NCBI GenBank assembly: GCA_049967535.1
Contig: JBMFSN010000001.1
Location: forward strand, 1-57,625
DNA length: 57,625 nucleotides
Reading direction: 5' to 3'
DNA from: Minisyncoccia bacterium
GTDB lineage: Bacteria > Patescibacteriota > Minisyncoccia > UBA6257
Part shown: positions 9,290-43,334 of the stretch, one piece after another
Position numbering within the stretch: the first letter of the stretch is position 1
How the letters are laid out: the number at the start of each line of letters is the position of its first letter
Notes under the pieces: model-generated
The model's database searches: none
Told to the model about the DNA's origin: nothing
The model's input: the letters and a program-made list of their open reading frames with translations, nothing else
Translations under genes and position numbers: made by a program

Positions 9290-9646
9290 ATGCCTCAATC
9301 TAATAATACCATCATTCTGGATGCCACTGACCAATCTTTGGGACGATTAGCTTCTCGTATTGCTGTTTTATTACAAGACAAAAATAAAGCTACTTTTGAA
9401 CCTAATAAACCCGGTACCAACACTATTATCGTTAATAATTTTAGTAAAATTAAATTTAAGGGCAATAAACCCCAAACTAAAATTTATTATAAACACACTG
9501 GTTACTTAGGGCACCTCAAAGAAACAACTTTGGATAAAATGTTTGAAAAAGACCCTCAAAGAGTTTTAAAACTAGCTGTTAGGGGAATGCTTCCCAAAAA
9601 TAAACTTCGTGACCAACGTTTAAAAAGATTAAAAATTAATTTATAG
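9290..9646 (+). CDS. rplM: 50S ribosomal protein L13 (short, 118 aa)
   Basis: ILDATDQSLGRLASRIAVLLQDK, HTGYLGHLKE and GMLPKNKL. Canonical rplM-rpsI pair. Confidence 0.85.
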   Translation: MPQSNNTIILDATDQSLGRLASRIAVLLQDKNKATFEPNKPGTNTIIVNNFSKIKFKGNKPQTKIYYKHTGYLGHLKETTLDKMFEKDPQRVLKLAVRGMLPKNKLRDQRLKRLKINL

Positions 9647-11537: not shown

Positions 11538-12638
11538 ATGACTGGCCAAAACAAATATCAAAAATCATTATATCTTTTTACTTTTATCCTTGTTGTTATA
11601 GGCTTTTTAAGCTTAATTAGTGCTTCTTCTATTATTGGAGCCGAAGATTATCATAATCCTTATTACTTTGTCAAAAAACAACTCCTTCAGGGCCTTTTAG
11701 GAGGTCTGATTTTGGCCTGGATTGTTTCTAAAATCAATTATCAATCATTTAAAAAGCTGTCTCTTATTTTATTAATTATCAATTTAGGGCTGGTAGGGCT
11801 TTGTTTTATTGGCCCCTTTAAAAACCCTAGTAATGGTTCTTTTCGTTGGTTAAAGCTTGGTCCTTTATCTTTTCAGCCTTCAGAATTATTAAAAATCACT
11901 TACGTTTTATTTTTAGCTAGTATTCTTAGTTCTTTAAATACAGAAAAAAGGAGACAAATTTTTAGTAGTTCTTTTCTTATTTTTCTATTATCTCTGGGTA
12001 TAGTAACTGGACTTTTAGCAAAACAACCCTCAACGGGAACATCTATTATTATAGGATTAAGTTCCCTGGTGATGTATTTTATTGCTGGTTTAAGCCTTAA
12101 ACAAATTTTGGTAGTTTTGCTTGTGGGTGGTTTGGGGTTAACCTTTTTAGTTATTAAAACCCCATACCGGATGCAAAGGTTTACTTCATTTTTATCAGGA
12201 GCTAATGATCCTTTAGGTTCTGGTTATCAAAGTCAGCAATCATTAATTGGGATTGGTTCTGGAGGAATTATTGGAGTGGGTTTTGGCAATTCTCTTCAGA
12301 GATTTAATTATTTACCAGAAAGCCATACCGATGCTATTTTTTCTATTATTGCCGAAGAATTTGGTTTTGTAGGCTCCATTATTCTTTTAATTATTTATCT
12401 TCTCTTTGTCTCTAGTGGTTTTAAACTAGCGGGAACAGTTTCAGATTTATATGGGAAATATATTATTATTGGAGTGATTAGTGGCATTGGTTTTCAAGCT
12501 TTCATTAATATTGCCTCTATGTGTAAATTAATGCCCATCACTGGCATTCCTTTGCCCTTTATTAGCTATGGTTCCTCGGCTATGGTTGCTAATTTTTTAG
12601 GGTTAGGTCTTATACATAATATAGCAAAACAGAACTAG
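11538..12638 (+). CDS. ftsW: SEDS-family peptidoglycan glycosyltransferase (FtsW/RodA)
   Basis: Polytopic membrane protein with SEDS motifs (FQPSELLKI, LPESHTDAIFSIIAEEFGFVGS, PITGIPLPFISYGSS). Adjacent to murG, which favours FtsW. Confidence 0.85.
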   Translation: MTGQNKYQKSLYLFTFILVVIGFLSLISASSIIGAEDYHNPYYFVKKQLLQGLLGGLILAWIVSKINYQSFKKLSLILLIINLGLVGLCFIGPFKNPSNGSFRWLKLGPLSFQPSELLKITYVLFLASILSSLNTEKRRQIFSSSFLIFLLSLGIVTGLLAKQPSTGTSIIIGLSSLVMYFIAGLSLKQILVVLLVGGLGLTFLVIKTPYRMQRFTSFLSGANDPLGSGYQSQQSLIGIGSGGIIGVGFGNSLQRFNYLPESHTDAIFSIIAEEFGFVGSIILLIIYLLFVSSGFKLAGTVSDLYGKYIIIGVISGIGFQAFINIASMCKLMPITGIPLPFISYGSSAMVANFLGLGLIHNIAKQN

Positions 12639-12773
12639 ATAAAATTCAATTTTCAATTACCAATTTTCAATTTACAATAAATTTTCAATGATTCAATTTC
12701 TAATGTTTGAAAATTATAAAATTGTAAATTCAATGAAAATTGTAAATTAGAAATTGTAAATTATAAAATTATT
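12639..12773 (+). repeat. Long composite intergenic repeat (TTTTCAAT module plus AAATTGT module), a dispersed family
   Basis: 12705..12762 matches the reverse complement of 43227..43284 at 56/58. The left part (caataaattttcaatgattcaatttctaatgttt) recurs at 21449..21570 (reversed) and 28415..28470. Confidence 0.85.
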
Positions 12774-16520: not shown

Positions 16521-16742
16521 ATGAAAAAAAATAAAATGACAAAGAGTAATAAATTAAAAAGAAAGATAGACAATGAAAAACTTAACGAAAAACTGGAAGA
16601 ATTAATCAAAGATTTACCCCAATTAATTCAGACAATCATAGAATATAAACTTAATATCCCATTAACCTTTTCTCAAGAGGAGAGTGTCAAATATAATATT
16701 CAGGAATATTTGTCCAATTTAAATAAAAAATATGGCAAATAA
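16521..16742 (+). CDS. Hypothetical small protein (73 aa)
   Basis: Track ORF 16476..16742. The ATG at 16521 follows a strong RBS (aaagggaggctagaa) and avoids overlap with tdk. Lys-rich, helical; no family recognised. Confidence 0.5.
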   Translation: MKKNKMTKSNKLKRKIDNEKLNEKLEELIKDLPQLIQTIIEYKLNIPLTFSQEESVKYNIQEYLSNLNKKYGK

Positions 16743-16830: not shown

Positions 16831-16858
16831 TTGACAGTTACTTTCCAGGCGCTATAAT
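16831..16858 (+). promoter_or_regulatory. Consensus sigma-70 promoter upstream of the recombinase gene
   Basis: TTGACA (16831..16836), 16 nt, TATAAT (16853..16858). Followed by a 9-bp leader hairpin ATACTTCGC/GCGAAGTAT (16868..16899). Confidence 0.55.
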
Positions 16859-16952
16859 GACATTAAGATACTTCGCATAAGGTAGCTTTAGCGAAGTATG
16901 ATATCTAAAGTAAGGGTTTAATTAACTAATTATCACTCCCCTAACAAAATCT

Positions 16953-17897
16953 ATGAAAAAAAGCCAAAAACCCATTCTTGAACATATTCCAGAATTTATG
17001 GAATATTTAGATATAGAAAAAGGTTTGAGCCATAACAGTCAGATTACTTATAATCGTTTAATTCATAAGTTTGAAAATTGGCTTAAGGAGAATAAATTGG
17101 CCACTCTCCTACCACATGAACTGACAGCAGAGCATCTTTGGCAATACCGCGTCTATTTATCCAAAATTTATAATAAAAACAGCCGTCAACCATTAAAAAG
17201 GGCTTCCATTAACTATTATCTTATTGTTTTAAGAAATCTTTTAAATTATTTTGCTGATAGAGACATGACAGCTTTACCAGCAGAAAAAGTAAAACTTTTT
17301 TTGGATAAAAAAGAAAAAAGCATTAAGTTTTTAAATTTAGAACAAGTTGAAGATTTGCTCTCTGCCCCAGATATTAGTAATATCAGCGGCTTAAGAGATA
17401 AAGCCATTTTAGAAACTTTATTTTCTACTGGTTTAAGAGTAGCGGAACTTGTCAGTCTCAATCGCAATCAAATTAAATTAACTAATTTAAATGATGATTT
17501 GGAAATAAATATTATTGGTAAAGGTAATCGTATTAGACCGGTTTATTTATCTCCTCGAAGTTTAATATCCATTAAAGATTATTTAGATAAAAGAACTGAT
17601 GACGAAGAAGCATTATTTATTAGCTTCAAAGGCCCAACCTCTCAAGAACACCGTTTAACCACCCGTTCCATAGAAAATATTGTTAGAAAATATGTTAATA
17701 AAGCCGGGATCTCTATCTTGGCCAGCCCTCACACCTTAAGACATAGCTTTGCCACTGATTTATTAACTCAAGGCGTTGATTTAAGAACTGTCCAAGAGTT
17801 TTTAGGTCATAAAAACATTGCTACCACTCAAATTTATACTCATATTACTAATAAACGCTTAAAAGATATTCATAAAAAATATCATAGTGAAGTATAA
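16953..17897 (+). CDS. Tyrosine recombinase, XerC/XerD family
   Basis: N-terminal SAM-like core-binding domain. Catalytic residues are in context: LFSTGLRVAELVSL (Arg), HTLRHSFAT (His-x-x-Arg), LGHKNIATTQIYTH (His...Tyr). Confidence 0.85.
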   Translation: MKKSQKPILEHIPEFMEYLDIEKGLSHNSQITYNRLIHKFENWLKENKLATLLPHELTAEHLWQYRVYLSKIYNKNSRQPLKRASINYYLIVLRNLLNYFADRDMTALPAEKVKLFLDKKEKSIKFLNLEQVEDLLSAPDISNISGLRDKAILETLFSTGLRVAELVSLNRNQIKLTNLNDDLEINIIGKGNRIRPVYLSPRSLISIKDYLDKRTDDEEALFISFKGPTSQEHRLTTRSIENIVRKYVNKAGISILASPHTLRHSFATDLLTQGVDLRTVQEFLGHKNIATTQIYTHITNKRLKDIHKKYHSEV

Positions 17898-17930: not shown

Positions 17931-18428
17931 CTACTCTTTAACTTGCTGTTTAGACGCCAATTTTTTATAAATTCTCATTGGCAAGGACCTTATCAGCAAT
18001 TCCCTTAATGAATACACTAGCTTCCAAAAACTATTTGGAAGTTTGATTTCGATGTATTCGATATCAAAATCCAATTTATTATCAAGCACAAGTTTCAAAT
18101 CACGTTTTATTCGAGGAATATGAATATCAGAAGCTATAATTCTAATATGCCGCAAATTGTCTAACATAGAAATATAGCCCTTGATCTCTTGCAAATAATC
18201 CAGTGTCATTTCATTTTTGGTCAGAACAACTAAATTAGAGCGAGGAGCACTTTCAATTATAGTATTGGGAGATACAAATAAGATAGCTTCTTGATCAGTA
18301 AAAGTCATCCAAAATTGTTTATTCGGAACCAAAAGACCATGTTGATTGTAAGGAAAATAGATAATGGCCTTTTGAACCCCAACGAATTTCGCCAACTTAA
18401 TTACATCGTCTTGACTTTCTTGTCTCAT
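17931..18428 (-). CDS. Hypothetical protein, weakly DUF218/YdcF-like
   Basis: 165 aa with a strong RBS (aaggaggtgagttag). IIASDIHIPRIKRDL resembles the DUF218 xTSxxHxxRA motif. The assignment is tentative. Confidence 0.45.
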   Translation of the reverse strand: MRQESQDDVIKLAKFVGVQKAIIYFPYNQHGLLVPNKQFWMTFTDQEAILFVSPNTIIESAPRSNLVVLTKNEMTLDYLQEIKGYISMLDNLRHIRIIASDIHIPRIKRDLKLVLDNKLDFDIEYIEIKLPNSFWKLVYSLRELLIRSLPMRIYKKLASKQQVKE

Positions 18429-18542
18429 CTAACTCACCTCCTTGCCTTTTGGCAGAATTTCTTTATATCTTTAAATTAAAACTCGATGTTTCTAATCGTT
18501 TATTTAGTTTTCAAAATACAACACTACACTTGACTATATTTT

Positions 18543-18571
18543 ATAATACCATACTTTATTTTATGTGTCAA
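18543..18571 (-). promoter_or_regulatory. Candidate promoter for 17931..18428
   Basis: On the minus strand: TTGACA (18571..18566), 17 nt, TATTAT (18548..18543). This leaves a leader of about 110 nt. Confidence 0.45.
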
Positions 18572-18586
18572 TAGAACTTAATGTAA

Positions 18587-18614
18587 ATAAAAAGGTAGGG
18601 ACTATCCCCTACCT
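18587..18614 (-). terminator. Rho-independent terminator of the four-gene orphan operon
   Basis: Minus strand: AGGTAGGG-gatagt-CCCTACCT followed by TTTTTATTT. The stem overlaps the TAG stop of the 261-aa ORF. Confidence 0.7.
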
Positions 18615-19394
18615 TATAAGATTTATTATTCCATTTTGGATCTTTATAGTTTTTTCACCAATATGAGCTGTTAGAGTGTTTGGATATAACGATAACAATT
18701 TTTCTAATCCTTGCCATAATAATTTTTTCGCTTGTTCAAGATTTTGTTTTTTAACTAAATCATAAATTTCATACTGAAGTTTTCGATAGATGACTAACTT
18801 AGTTTTTTCTTGATAAGGATTTACATATACCGTACCAAGTTTTTTAAAAACATCAAAATATTCGCTCCATTTGATATTTGAGGTATCTTTTTTCTCTAGT
18901 ACATTTATCATTTCTATTATTGCCAAAATTACATTTCGTATTATTAAATTGCAGCGCTCTTTTTCCTGAACCAATTTTTCCGCCCTATGTAATACTTTCT
19001 TTACGATAGATAAATCTCTTTTCTCTTGTTCCGTTAAAGCAAATTTTACCGCCTCTAAATTATTTTTTAGATTTGAAATAGATATTTCTAAATCGCTATT
19101 CTCAAGAATTGCATTAGCTTTAAGCAATGAATTAACCTTATCAACAGTATCCTCTACTTGATAAATTTTCCCTTTATGTTCTACTTTCTTTGGCCATCTA
19201 ATAATCAGATCTTCATAATGAAATGTCACATGAAGGAGTTGCTGCCTAATAGCAGCATCAATATCTTTCACAGACCAAGTTTTTTCTCTTCCAATAATTA
19301 CCACCTCGCCTTTACTATTCACTTTCAATTTTGCAGTATGAAGAGATCTTCCATAAGGAATAGTCTGGACGAATGTTTCTATATTACTTTTCAT
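18609..19394 (-). CDS. Hypothetical protein (261 aa), last gene of the orphan operon
   Basis: Strong RBS (gaaggaggtgaaagaaa). Beta-rich N-terminal third, then long helical or coiled-coil regions. No family recognised. Confidence 0.6.
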   Translation of the reverse strand: MKSNIETFVQTIPYGRSLHTAKLKVNSKGEVVIIGREKTWSVKDIDAAIRQQLLHVTFHYEDLIIRWPKKVEHKGKIYQVEDTVDKVNSLLKANAILENSDLEISISNLKNNLEAVKFALTEQEKRDLSIVKKVLHRAEKLVQEKERCNLIIRNVILAIIEMINVLEKKDTSNIKWSEYFDVFKKLGTVYVNPYQEKTKLVIYRKLQYEIYDLVKKQNLEQAKKLLWQGLEKLLSLYPNTLTAHIGEKTIKIQNGIINLIR

Positions 19395-19611
19395 TTTCTT
19401 TCACCTCCTTCTTTTTTCTCTTCTGATCTAAAACTTCAACTTCCATGTTTACATAGTTTATTTTAGGATCAAAATGGAATTCTTTATTAAACCTCTTAGC
19501 AATAATCAATCCAGCTTGTTGTTCCGAGTATGCCCAGACAAAATACTCTTTTATTTTATCTGAAAAATTCAACACCTGAACTTTAAAAAGTTTCTTTCTC
19601 ATCTCAATCAT
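19384..19611 (-). CDS. Hypothetical small protein (75 aa, or 72 aa from ATG 19602)
   Basis: Overlaps the downstream ORF by 11 nt. The AGGAGG spacing fits the second ATG (19602) better. No family recognised. Confidence 0.55.
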   Translation of the reverse strand: MIEMRKKLFKVQVLNFSDKIKEYFVWAYSEQQAGLIIAKRFNKEFHFDPKINYVNMEVEVLDQKRKKKEVKENEK

Positions 19612-19807
19612 CTCCTCCTAAACCCAATAAAAGCATTTCCGCCAATTCTCTAAAAACTCGTCTGGTTTTAGCATCAAGTTGACCTTGTTTAGGCGTTGGA
19701 GTAATTTTTATTTTTCCTGTTTCCGTTCTTCTGTATCCCCTGGTAACACCTTTTCGAACAAGAACTACTTGATTTGTCACTTCGTTTGTTTTTTTATTTT
19801 CTTTCAT
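19604..19807 (-). CDS. Hypothetical small basic protein (67 aa), paralog of 19804..20022
   Basis: RBS agaggaggcgtaaa and an ATGA overlap with the upstream ORF. Its C-terminal KTRRVFRELAEMLLLG resembles KTKRAWLKVARLVLLG of the neighbour. Confidence 0.55.
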   Translation of the reverse strand: MKENKKTNEVTNQVVLVRKGVTRGYRRTETGKIKITPTPKQGQLDAKTRRVFRELAEMLLLGLGGDD

Positions 19808-20022
19808 TTTACGCCTCCTCTAGGTGTATAATTTGGTCCTAAAAGAACCAATCTAGCAACTTTTAACCAAGCTCGTTTCGTCTTCTGAGCCAGATTCTGA
19901 GCATAAATGATCTTAACTGTCTTACCTTTAATAGTAAAGATCGCTCGGGTATTCCCTTCTTTCATCTCTAAAGTATGCCATTGAGGCACCTTTAGAATCG
20001 TCTTTCCTACTGCTTTTTCCAT
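19804..20022 (-). CDS. Hypothetical small basic protein (72 aa), first gene of the orphan operon
   Basis: RBS aaaaggaggttaaa, 72 aa. No family recognised. Confidence 0.55.
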   Translation of the reverse strand: MEKAVGKTILKVPQWHTLEMKEGNTRAIFTIKGKTVKIIYAQNLAQKTKRAWLKVARLVLLGPNYTPRGGVK

Positions 20023-20266
20023 TTTAACCTCCTTTTATTTCTAGATTTTATATATAAAAACTATCAAATTTTCAGTTTTCAAATTACAAATTAGAACAAA
20101 TAATAGATATGAGAATTCCCATATCTACTTAAATTATCGCATATTTTCAATCATTTGTCAAATTAGTTAGAGTTACATAATCTTTGGTTGTAAATAAAGC
20201 CAATTCATGGTAAATTATTATATATTATTCGTATAATTCGTATCCATTCATATATTTGCATCGATT

Positions 20267-21448
20267 ATGAGAATCTCCTACTCCAGTTTAGAAAACTTTA
20301 AAAATTGCCCCCTAAAATATAAATTTTCAGAAATTGATAAAATCAAAGAGCCTAAAACCAAAGAGGCTATTTTTGGTAATTATATTCATCAAATATTAAA
20401 ATGGTTTTATCAGCAAGACCCTCACTTCCCTACCCTCGACGGACTACGGGAATATTATTATAATCACTGGCCAAAGAAAGAAGACAATTTTTCTTGGCAA
20501 AATGAGCAAGAAGAAAAAGATTATTTCCAAGAAGGTTTAAGAATGCTAGAAGAATTTTATAAAAAAAATATGCCCCCGAAAACTATGATTATGGATTTAG
20601 AAACAAGATTTGAGGCAGTAATTGACGAAACTCCCAATGAACCGGGTGGAAAACATATTCTGACTGGAGTAATTGATAGAATTGATAAACTACCAGATGA
20701 AACTATAGAAATTATTGATTATAAAACTGGAAAACGTATGCCTTCCCAAAACGATGTAGATACTAATCTACAACTTTCTATCTATGCCTTAGGCCTTCAA
20801 AGAAAATGGCCAAAAATTAAATTAGAGGATCTTCGTTTGAGTCTTTATTTCTTAAAATTTGGCGAAAAAATAGAAACCAAAAAAACTCAAGAAGATATCA
20901 ATCAAACCCAAACTAAATTGATTGATTTAATCCATCAAATTCAAAATAGTTCCTTCGAACCAAAAGCTTCACCTCTTTGCAATTGGTGTGGTTATAAGCC
21001 AATTTGTCCCCTTTGGCGCCATCTTTATGAAAAAAACCTTGATAAACAATTTCAGGGTATTAATATCGAAGAGAAAATTGACGAATATTTTACCCTGCGC
21101 CAAAATAAAGAGCAAATTGAAGCTAAACTTAAAGAATTGAAAGACTTAATTGAAGCCTATAGTCAGCAAAACGGATTAAAAAGAGTTTATGGCAATAATG
21201 GCTATTTTAATCAAGAAGTATCTCATAAAATTTCTTATAATAAAACGCAATTAAAAGCCATCTTAGAACCTTTAGGGAAATGGGACGAAATTTTAGCTAT
21301 TGATCCTCAAAAATTAGAAAAAATATTAAAAGAAATTCCGCCAGAAGCGAGAGAAAAAATTGAACAAGCCAAAAAAATAGTGAAAAAATATGAATATTTA
21401 GAGGCTAATGATAAAAAGAAAAAAGAAATTGAAGAAGAAATGCATTAA
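20267..21448 (+). CDS. PD-(D/E)XK nuclease, Cas4/RecB/AddB-like with Cys cluster, plus C-terminal coiled-coil extension
   Basis: N-terminal Cys (ENFKNCPLKYKF), GVIDRIDKL...IEIIDYKTGK (D...D/E-x-K core), QLSIYAL, and C-terminal CNWCGYKPIC (4-Cys Fe-S pattern). About 140 extra K/E-rich residues follow. Confidence 0.8.
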   Translation: MRISYSSLENFKNCPLKYKFSEIDKIKEPKTKEAIFGNYIHQILKWFYQQDPHFPTLDGLREYYYNHWPKKEDNFSWQNEQEEKDYFQEGLRMLEEFYKKNMPPKTMIMDLETRFEAVIDETPNEPGGKHILTGVIDRIDKLPDETIEIIDYKTGKRMPSQNDVDTNLQLSIYALGLQRKWPKIKLEDLRLSLYFLKFGEKIETKKTQEDINQTQTKLIDLIHQIQNSSFEPKASPLCNWCGYKPICPLWRHLYEKNLDKQFQGINIEEKIDEYFTLRQNKEQIEAKLKELKDLIEAYSQQNGLKRVYGNNGYFNQEVSHKISYNKTQLKAILEPLGKWDEILAIDPQKLEKILKEIPPEAREKIEQAKKIVKKYEYLEANDKKKKEIEEEMH

Positions 21449-31804: not shown

Positions 31805-32851
31805 CTAAGTAATAAACATTGCGTCTCCAAAAGAAAAAAATCTATATTTTTTATCAATAGCTTCAGAATAGGCTTTTAAAATTAAATCCCTGCCTGCAAA
31901 AGCGCTTACCAACATTAATAAAGTAGACTTAGGTAAATGAAAGTTAGTAATTAAAGCATCAGTAAATCGAAACTGGAATCCTGGATAAATATATAAATTA
32001 GTCCAACCTTCTTTTGCTTTCAATTGATGGTTTTCTTGGCTGCAACTTTCCAAAACTCTGGCTACGGTTGTTCCTACGCTGATAATTCTTTTACCTTCAG
32101 CTTTATCTTGGTTTAATTTTTGAGTGATATCTTGGGGTAGAATAAAATATTCCGAATGCATTTGATGTTTTTCTATTTCTTGCTCTTTCACGGGTAAAAA
32201 AGTACCCAAACCTACGTGTAAAGTAATAAATTCTATTTCAATTCCTTTGTTTTTTATTTGTTCTAAAAGAGATTCGGTAAAATGAAATCCAGCAGTGGGG
32301 GCCGCCACCGCTCCTTCTTTAGAGGCATAAACTGTTTGGTATTTTTCGAAAGATTCTGGCGACGGTTGATTAACATAAGGAGGGAGTGGCATCTGGCCTA
32401 ATTTGATAATTTCTTCTTTTAAATCGTTCCCTTCTAGATTAAAAAGAATAGTTCTTTCGTAGCCATTTTTTTCAATAATTTCTCCTTTCAATTTGTCAGA
32501 AAAAATAATCTCTTGATTTAATTTTAATTCTGGTTGGCCAATAATCATCCATTCCTTTGGCCAATGAATAAAATCAAAAAAATTTAAACCCTTAGGTTTA
32601 ATTAAAACAATTTCTGCTTTGCCACCAGTTTTAGTTTTTTTGCCAAATAAGCGGGCGGGTACTACTTTGGTATTATTAAATACCAAAACATCTTGAGGTG
32701 TTAAATAATCTAAAATTTGATAAAAATAATGATGTTGAATCTCTTGGGTTTTTCGGTCGAGAATTAAAAGCCGAGAGTGGTCTCTCGGCTCTATTGGCTT
32801 TTGAGCAATTAATTCTTTAGGTAAATAATAATCAAATAAAGAAATATCCAT
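31805..32851 (-). CDS. queA: S-adenosylmethionine:tRNA ribosyltransferase-isomerase
   Basis: FDYYLPKELIAQKP, AAPTAGFHFT, GTTVARVLES and FFSFGDAMFI. Confidence 0.92.
   Translation of the reverse strand: MDISLFDYYLPKELIAQKPIEPRDHSRLLILDRKTQEIQHHYFYQILDYLTPQDVLVFNNTKVVPARLFGKKTKTGGKAEIVLIKPKGLNFFDFIHWPKEWMIIGQPELKLNQEIIFSDKLKGEIIEKNGYERTILFNLEGNDLKEEIIKLGQMPLPPYVNQPSPESFEKYQTVYASKEGAVAAPTAGFHFTESLLEQIKNKGIEIEFITLHVGLGTFLPVKEQEIEKHQMHSEYFILPQDITQKLNQDKAEGKRIISVGTTVARVLESCSQENHQLKAKEGWTNLYIYPGFQFRFTDALITNFHLPKSTLLMLVSAFAGRDLILKAYSEAIDKKYRFFSFGDAMFIT

Positions 32852-41590: not shown

Positions 41591-43334
<1,744 letters not shown>

Follow-up and report, generated by a model that had tools for sequence, protein, structure and literature searches.

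The subject of this study is a cluster of four orphan genes, designated A to D (18609-20022, minus strand), on contig JBMFSN010000001.1 from a metagenome-assembled genome (MAG) of a Minisyncoccia bacterium, which belongs to the Parcubacteria within the candidate phyla radiation (CPR). The whole stretch of DNA that was analysed, 57,625 nt, is referred to as the window. A, B, C and D are carried on one mRNA, which starts at a promoter close to the consensus and is closed by a clean terminator; the four cistrons are translationally coupled, each with a strong Shine-Dalgarno (SD) sequence. About 29 distinct loci containing D were retrieved and their open reading frames (ORFs) classified by jackhmmer and BLAST; W denotes the window locus and L001-L035 the other D-containing loci that were compared. 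The cluster is inherited vertically in a sub-clade of the Parcubacteria/Minisyncoccia, where it occupies a fixed chromosomal slot, and A to D are under purifying selection. The operon based on D is unlike any known system, a novelty that rests on exclusion, there being nothing known that matches it. As to function, we tentatively favour a reading that we hold to be possible rather than probable, in which D is the scaffold of a cytoplasmic complex of the products, and this complex acts together with a partner of the DUF218 type in the biology of the envelope or of division.

Operon structure and expression signals

All four genes lie on the minus strand: A (19804-20022; 72 aa, isoelectric point (pI) 10.7), an orphan; B (19604-19807; 67 aa, pI 10.3), a paralogue of A; C (19384-19602; 72 aa, pI 9.5), the usual coupled partner of D; and D itself (18609-19394; 261 aa), which anchors the cluster at every locus. 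A and B share an exact ATGA overlap (19804-19807), C and D share an exact overlap of 11 nt (19384-19394), and B and C either overlap by 8 nt or are separated by 1 nt, depending on whether C begins at ATG 19611 (giving 75 aa) or at ATG 19602. The start at 19602 is favoured because it is suitably spaced from the SD and is also the one annotated by NCBI (72 aa). Apart from this shift in the preferred start of C, the ORFs and junctions agree with the original prediction, a model's reading of the bare sequence, and its claims of a strong SD for every gene and of a clean terminator closing the set were likewise upheld. Perfect complements of the anti-SD, 6-10 nt long, precede each gene (AAGGAGGT for A, AGGAGG for B and C, AAGGAGGTGA for D); the window holds no 16S rRNA.

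The operon promoter (20133-20161, minus strand), an extended -10 type with the form TTGACA-17-TGcGATAAT, lies upstream of A and is the sole match in the window at one mismatch or fewer, against a chance expectation of 0.03. It is kept nearly base for base in the 13 related loci that have upstream sequence and lie in the slot next to the Xer recombinase gene and its dif-like site, but not in L015, and it is retained even in L023 and L027, despite an identity of only about 26% in D. The -10 box is followed at once by a palindrome, TAGATATGGGAATTCTCATATCTA (20102-20129, minus strand), a candidate operator or 5'-terminal mRNA hairpin, which is kept in L011/L018 (as GGATATGAGAATCCTCATATCC) and in L012, with co-variation at the outer arm positions, and is absent from L001-type loci. 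Further along the 5' untranslated region is a leader box, TTGTAATTTGAAAACTGAA (20071-20089, minus strand), and a second copy of it, TTGTATTTTGAAAACTAAA (18503-18521, minus strand), identical at 17 of 19 positions, is found in the leader of gene E, a separate transcription unit described below. The underlying motif, TTGAAAAYTRAA, has five copies in the window where 0.6 would be expected, and its C-containing form is confined there to the leaders of A-D and E; the box recurs in the leader of the cluster in L014, L018, L023 and L027. At the other end, the intrinsic terminator (18582-18615, minus strand) consists of a stem (18615-18592) that takes in the stop codon of D and, after it, a T-run; its folding energy is -14.7 kcal/mol (z = -2.25), and it is conserved in related loci. 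A search of Rfam over 16.5-22 kb gave no significant match.

Hairpins or palindromes also stand directly upstream of the SD in the cluster leaders of W (20023-20070), L001, L023 and L027, and their sequence differs at each locus: TAGTTTTTATATATAAAATCTA in W, a 30-nt perfect palindrome in L023 and CCCCGAAAAGGGG in L027, with GCCAAAAGGC in the leader of E. This may be a structure that is conserved without its sequence.

The genes for GluRS, XerC, the nuclease, L27, L9, Ctp, LigT and Def have A/T-rich leaders without an SD, whereas A, B, C, D and E all carry a AAGGAGGTGA-type SD. Even when any start within the first 40 codons was admitted, at most three of the 56 long ORFs in the window could be SD-led, namely D, E and queA (31805-32851, minus strand; AAGGAG). 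The same contrast between slot genes and other genes was seen in L001, L015, L022, L023, L027 and L030, and the DUF218 genes that occur in the slot are also SD-led. The GC content of the cluster equals that of the rest of the window, and its synonymous codon usage deviates (0.126 against 0.078 +/- 0.010), to a degree reached by none of 500 samples. The "foreign-looking translation signals" of the original prediction are thus real, the slot genes being SD-led in an essentially SD-less genome, yet the anomaly of signals and codons does not by itself establish membership of a mobile element.

Besides these genes, just one further start in the window is strongly SD-led, namely ATG 16521, which opens a small Lys-rich ORF (16521-16742, plus strand) between tdk and the dif-like site; it specifies 73 aa from this start, or 88 aa from ATG 16476. 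L030 has four small SD-led ORFs on the equivalent side of xerC, and from these and the Lys-rich ORF it follows that the island of SD-led genes flanks dif on both sides. Such an island provides a handle on the partition of translation initiation in CPR bacteria, and a simple sequence signature by which functionally linked orphan genes can be found.

A possible parallel exists in the Bacteroidia, the ribosomes of which are SD-blind and in which rpsU keeps an extended SD as a regulatory device (PMC7797042, PMC9976891, PMC13000453). There too, leaders are A-rich and lack an SD genome-wide, and very few genes have an extended one, but the phylum is a different one and the SD-led genes described here form a terminus-proximal orphan cluster rather than a ribosomal protein gene. 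By extension, this CPR genome, in other respects SD-independent, might have a second expression regime that depends on the SD and of which the operon is the visible core, one in which the terminus-flanking genes (A-D, E/DUF218 and their equivalents in sister loci) would be gated by the availability of the 16S anti-SD, as rpsU is, and would encode an unseen complex with a fold lacking any PDB relative; we regard this as improbable.

The encoded proteins and their relatives

None of the products of A-E gave a significant match in Pfam, NCBIfam, PHROGs or PADLOC, their family profiles returned only noise against PDB sequences, and no recurrent family emerged when every member of the D family was compared with Pfam. 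The family of D is small, with nine clusters among 5.8 billion proteins and 21 representatives among 1.84 billion, and a pattern scan could detect it in only two of 185,579 GTDB species representatives, one of them titled a Parcubacteria MAG. Homologues of A and C were traced through loci anchored by D; word-indexed searches with these two returned only self-matches.

The AlphaFold2 model of D, built from an alignment of 22 sequences, reached a predicted local distance difference test score (pLDDT) of 83 and a predicted template-modelling score (pTM) of 0.74, and the larger alignment cured the unresolved N-terminus of a first model from nine sequences (pLDDT 71). From the N-terminus, the model leads from a four-stranded beta domain and a helix (45-65) through a coiled-coil hairpin formed by residues 76-95 and 100-167, in which 79% of the a/d heptad positions are hydrophobic, to a helical bundle (176-234) and finally a beta meander at the C-terminus. 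Conservation is highest in the N-terminal beta domain and helix a1. Foldseek found no relative of this model in the PDB (best E 0.12, TM 0.38 or lower), nor of the earlier, lower-confidence model in BFVD (best E 0.11). The original prediction, which had assigned none of the proteins to a family and had described D as a beta-rich N-terminal module followed by long helices, is therefore in accord with the family searches, the model and the heptad analysis. Confident homology to phage structural or housekeeping proteins was not found, no Foldseek match in BFVD or the PDB falling below E 0.1. A Rad52-type annealing protein and a Skp/prefoldin-like "jellyfish" were both considered for D from the order of strands and helices only, and were rejected for want of support from Foldseek and Pfam.

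The cluster products are basic and predicted to be soluble, with a negative grand average of hydropathy (GRAVY) and no hydrophobic segments; all three small proteins (A, B and C) are basic, where two had been noted before. None of the slot proteins showed a DNA-binding fold or motif. Their PHROG matches stand at E 0.016 or weaker and are all to families of unknown function; within the C family, six of seven members weakly match phrog_17358, likewise of unknown function (best E 0.0027). The ratio of nonsynonymous to synonymous substitution (dN/dS) is 0.10-0.34 for A, 0.22 for D, and about 0.1-0.35 for A, C and D taken together; for B, the proportion of nonsynonymous differences (pN 0.36) is well under a saturated synonymous value (pS 0.75). 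A-D are therefore real genes.

D is the only gene present in all of the roughly 29 loci. C lies directly upstream of it as a small protein in 11 loci and forms the C-terminal domain of a protein of 139-185 aa in L010, L011/L018 and L034; at least 15 loci have C and D as neighbours. A was found in eight (W, L001, L005, L013, L017, L019, L020, L021), and B only in W, L004 and L012, in the last within an ORF of 150 aa. The position upstream of D is held in more distant lineages by G (213-255 aa), an E-like gene, a PyrE-like gene (L014) or a gene for a 171-aa protein (L015/L016), and this upstream gene always tightly abuts or overlaps D. A zinc-ribbon protein, H, is often encoded downstream of D in sister loci. 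The conserved unit is thus D with its coupled upstream gene, usually C, to which A or B may be added; A and B are paralogous (hhalign 80%, E = 1.4e-5), lineage-specific additions. The co-occurrence that the original prediction proposed as a check was found in part, in that genes of the set recur together in other loci, the usual forms being A-C-D, B-C-D and C-D, but the full set A-B-C-D is unique to W. Links that had been drawn by eye, of C to the N-terminus of G, and of A/B to the C-terminus of G and the N-terminus of H, had hhalign probabilities below 3% and were dropped.

Divergence within the slot is rapid. Identity to L023 is 26% for D, against 75% for XerC, 63% for the nuclease and 66% for L27, and overall the slot proteins evolve two to three times faster than those of the flanks. 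Gene content also turns over, by fission, fusion and cassette replacement.

Two further observations were made at sister loci. A family of small acidic orphans (84-117 aa, with the motif EEGS.F..EGR.Y.V.NG.A) is encoded downstream of D in L001 (6203-6457), L002 (1545-1823), L032 (6776-7048) and L035 (1438-1791), and is missing from the window. In L015 (3985-4050; about 7160-7225 in L016), no ATG, GTG or TTG in frame with D comes before its conserved N-terminal motif, EKFVQPIP...; relative to the 171-aa gene that precedes D, the motif reads in the -1 frame, following a AAAGGAGGAG SD and across the sequence G_AAA_AAT. D may here have a non-canonical start, or be fused to its neighbour by a -1 frameshift.

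The chromosomal slot beside xerC

The recombinase gene next to the cluster (16953-17897, plus strand) encodes a tyrosine recombinase of the XerC/D type (Pfam Phage_integrase, 3.4e-42, with a SAM-like N-terminal domain). Its leader contains a promoter (16831-16858, plus strand; TTGACA-16-TATAAT) and a dif-like site, ACTTCGCATAA-GGTAGC-TTTAGCGAAGT (16870-16897, plus strand), a 28-bp palindrome of 11-6-11 form. The site was found through its conservation across loci, direct matching of E. coli dif, B. subtilis dif, difSL and difH to the window having given only noise. It is single-copy in the window (0 expected) and in each locus; the arms are conserved and the 6-bp centre varies in L022-25, L027, L029, L033 and L035, and the site is degenerate in L030. 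Cumulative G-C skew reaches its maximum at 16916, where gene orientation also flips; in L027 the maximum (9434) coincides with the dif-like element (9407-9430), and in L023 it falls nearby. Because this conserved, single-copy site lies in the xerC leader at the skew maximum, the recombinase and the site are most likely the Xer/dif pair of the chromosome, and the former not the integrase of a mobile element. The site also provides a replication-terminus anchor for these fragmentary genomes.

A recombinase gene with a linked dif site has been described for XerS/difSL (PMC2731167, PMC5357621). The resemblance to this system and to XerH/difH is one of context only, i.e., a recombinase gene with an adjacent upstream 28-bp site of 11-6-11 form at the terminus; the sequence of the window site departs from difSL and difH, its left arm looking more like the XerC arm of classical dif, and the A-D operon is part of no known Xer system. 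A literature search returned no description of Xer/dif in CPR bacteria, nor of the A-D cluster.

On one side the slot is bordered by xerC, a 64-aa gene and the gene for GluRS or enolase, and on the other by a divergent nuclease gene followed by those for L27, L9, Ctp and LigT. XerC is 57-79% identical and syntenic across the clade. The nuclease (20267-21448, plus strand; PDDEXK_1, 5.7e-40), a Cas4/AddB-like PD-(D/E)XK protein transcribed divergently from the operon, is 63-81% identical across the clade and adjoins the cluster in 12 loci, and is a conserved, syntenic core gene. The flanks in the window are housekeeping genes (GluRS, Tdk, L27, L9, Ctp), and their order is unchanged where D is only about 20-30% identical. 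In W, L022, L023, L027, L029, L030, L033 and L035 the cluster sits beside xerC, 1.0-3.1 kb from the dif-like site at the skew maximum. The exceptions are L015 and L016, in which D lies outside the slot, away from the skew switch, the Xer gene and the nuclease, and beside MurB.

Some smaller features of the nuclease gene were also recorded. Just upstream of its start (20227-20242, minus strand) the heptamer TACGAAT occurs twice, with three copies in L014 and four in L004; in L001, L017, L019 and L021 this position is taken instead by AAGTCAAAA repeats. Both kinds of repeat may be sites for a regulator of the nuclease gene. The protein shows the 1+3 cysteine pattern of Fe-S Cas4-type nucleases, with no CRISPR array nearby, and its C-terminal extension (267-307) weakly matches DUF7376 (2.4e-5) and a Mu Gam/Sipho_Gp157-like TOTE domain (0.033).

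The original prediction had placed the operon in a setting typical of defence or mobile-element modules, and this did not survive the comparison. The Xer gene is most likely chromosomal, the nuclease a core gene and the flanks housekeeping, and although the content of the slot varies its position is fixed between syntenic genes, unlike a variable defence island. No direct repeats bracket the cluster within the window, only short AT-rich chance repeats being found, and there is no second dif or att duplicate around it. D and C have no relatives among 2.9 million IMG/VR viral contigs or in phage GenBank, and D has none in plasmids. PADLOC gave no significant, reproducible match, the weak ones being D with AriA (0.017) and C with PDC-S31 (0.001); the latter assignment was rejected, since a match made by only one of seven C-family members is due to chance. 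Pfam, NCBIfam and PADLOC revealed no toxin or antitoxin domain in A-D, and no recognisable effector (nuclease, NTPase, protease or pore) was found among the slot proteins.

Two kinds of known element come closest. Integrative mobile elements exploiting Xer (IMEX), such as CTX-phi, TLC and GGI, likewise have small genes with their own expression signals and a variable content beside Xer/dif. Here, however, dif is not duplicated, xerC lies between dif and the cluster, genes for replication or morphogenesis are missing, and the A-D cluster is vertically inherited and absent from viral contigs; a model of the cluster as an IMEX or island was rejected for lack of flanking repeats and a second dif. 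Type II toxin-antitoxin loci share the small, overlapping, coupled genes and the palindrome at the promoter, but they differ in that A-D match no toxin or antitoxin family, that there are four to five genes, including one for a 261-aa coiled-coil protein, and that the locus is fixed and syntenic rather than sporadic.

Gene E, DUF218 proteins and possible functions

Downstream of the operon is gene E (17931-18428, minus strand), which specifies a protein of 165 aa that is a conserved partner of D. It has its own promoter (18543-18571, minus strand; TTGACA-17-(TG)TATTAT), leader box, SD (AAGGAGGTGA) and terminator (17925-17902, minus strand). Members of the E family adjoin D, upstream or downstream, in seven loci (W, L010, L022, L023-25, L026, L027/28, L030/31), and true DUF218 genes do so in six (L003, L004, L011, L032, L033, L035); in L035, a distant lineage, D and a Pfam-confirmed DUF218 gene have 8 nt in common. 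The array of terminator, promoter and leader downstream of D is conserved whichever gene follows, be it E (W, L010, L030) or DUF218 (L011, L033), the E promoter itself being recognisable in L010, L011, L030 and L033, and the two genes therefore appear to be interchangeable cassettes. E had been called DUF218-like in the original prediction. Profile comparison does not bear this out: E does not match Pfam DUF218 (PF02698), only one of six E-family members does so at all (E = 0.13), and hhalign gave a probability of 0.06-0.07%, homology being undetectable; divergent DUF218 membership of E, or of the p140 family, was accordingly rejected. What stands is the equivalence in position and regulation to true DUF218 genes, and this supports the view that E works like a DUF218 protein, not that it belongs to the family.

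The DUF218 proteins ElyC and SanA affect the homeostasis of the peptidoglycan precursor lipid II (PMC3879167, PMC12176290, PMC13251401). Compared with DUF218 (PF02698; ElyC, SanA and YdcF of E. coli), E holds the exact position and expression platform of such genes, but has no detectable homology to them, and A-D are unrelated; moreover, ElyC and SanA reside in the membrane and come from Gram-negative bacteria (PMC3879167, PMC12176290), and the slot proteins are cytoplasmic. In the leader of E, a hydrophobic mini-ORF of about 30 aa (MLIGLTIIAIFAFLCAIFSPDDPGDLGRGG in L010) lies between the conserved leader and E in L010 (about 2020-2110) and L030 (about 1000-1110), and is absent from the window.

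Under the reading favoured here, the products of A-D would form a cytoplasmic hetero-oligomer in which D serves as a coiled-coil scaffold and its conserved N-terminal beta domain docks the small basic proteins C, A and B, with coupled translation supplying these in fixed ratios. One of the small proteins could feed back on the palindrome or the leader box and so regulate both transcription units. More speculatively, the complex would act together with a DUF218-type or E-type protein, and a role in the envelope or division might then be likelier than one in defence, given the part played by ElyC and SanA in lipid II homeostasis. The links that count towards this are the exchange of E for DUF218, the true DUF218 genes beside D in other loci, the overlap with DUF218 in L035, and MurB beside D in L015/L016. 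CPR genomes often carry orphan operons, and roughly half of the genes in these genomes have no explanation. If the complex is real, it would represent a new protein family and fold, confined to one CPR branch, and would supply the first functional partner for cytoplasmic DUF218-type proteins.

Several points weigh against such a role. No slot protein has homology or fold similarity to an envelope or division factor, and E is not demonstrable as a DUF218 protein (hhalign 0.07%). The DUF218 proteins that have been characterised are membrane-anchored and proteobacterial, and those of the slot are cytoplasmic. The associations with DUF218 and MurB are few and could reflect synteny alone, and the fast evolution, gene turnover, codon usage and SD island fit a module of conflict or of foreign origin about as well.

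Such a module is the main rival explanation and is close to the view of the original prediction: an ancient, domesticated phage or mobile-element module residing in the terminus-proximal slot and now engaged in conflict, as a system of defence, superinfection exclusion or addiction. The neighbourhood of dif is a known hotspot for acquired DNA, and a strong promoter with AAGGAGGTGA SD sites is self-sufficient in an SD-less genome. Synonymous codon usage that deviates at unchanged GC, evolution two to three times faster than the flanks, turnover by fission, fusion and cassette replacement, small basic products with a zinc-ribbon protein in sister loci, and the weak but consistent similarity of the C family to the phage family phrog_17358 would all be in keeping. 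We nevertheless consider it rather unlikely, as no PADLOC family was reproducibly matched, no effector could be recognised, the relatives of D and C in viral contigs and phage GenBank and of D in plasmids are missing, as are att or dif duplicates around the cluster, and the promoter, leader and SD sites have been conserved and not left to decay; the fixed position, purifying selection and vertical inheritance down to about 20-25% identity point the same way. Mere accident, i.e., a fortuitous run of fast-evolving ORFans that are co-transcribed in a permissive terminus-proximal slot and have no joint function, would explain why the gene upstream of D varies (C, G, E-like, PyrE-like or the 171-aa protein), why A-B-C-D is complete in W only, and why the by-eye domain links between partner families failed their profile tests. 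It sits badly with the tight, conserved stop/start overlaps, the purifying selection on all genes, the C-D adjacency in at least 15 loci, and a promoter, leader box and SD conserved over deep divergence, and we think it very unlikely.

The position of the operon raises a further alternative, that of a factor in DNA transactions at the terminus which is encoded near its site of action, as are tus and rtp, and which would serve as an accessory or activator of Xer, an organiser or fork trap at Ter, or a partner of the nuclease. Tus and RTP are terminus-encoded, autoregulated, lineage-restricted and mutually non-homologous, and the palindrome that overlaps the operon promoter recalls the autoregulation of tus at TerB. 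The short distance to the dif-like site beside xerC in eight loci, the divergent nuclease in 12, the basic small proteins and the zinc-ribbon protein of sister loci are also what might be expected. However, A-D have no sequence or fold similarity to Tus or RTP, no Ter-like repeats were found, and no DNA-binding fold or motif was detected. A DNA function at the terminus or with Xer is weakened by L015 and L016, where D is off the terminus and apart from the Xer gene and the nuclease. Adjacency is equally well explained by synteny conserved among relatives, and XerC and the nuclease are 63-81% conserved where D falls to 26%, which would be unusual for obligate partners. This alternative is accordingly judged improbable.

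Outside the slot, near-identical AT-rich repeats occur in two intergenic regions of the window (about 12540-12660 and about 43200-43330), with the form aatttacaattt.taatttacaattttcattgaatttacaatttta.aattttcaaac followed by runs of TTGAAAATTGAA, and look like a dispersed intergenic element.

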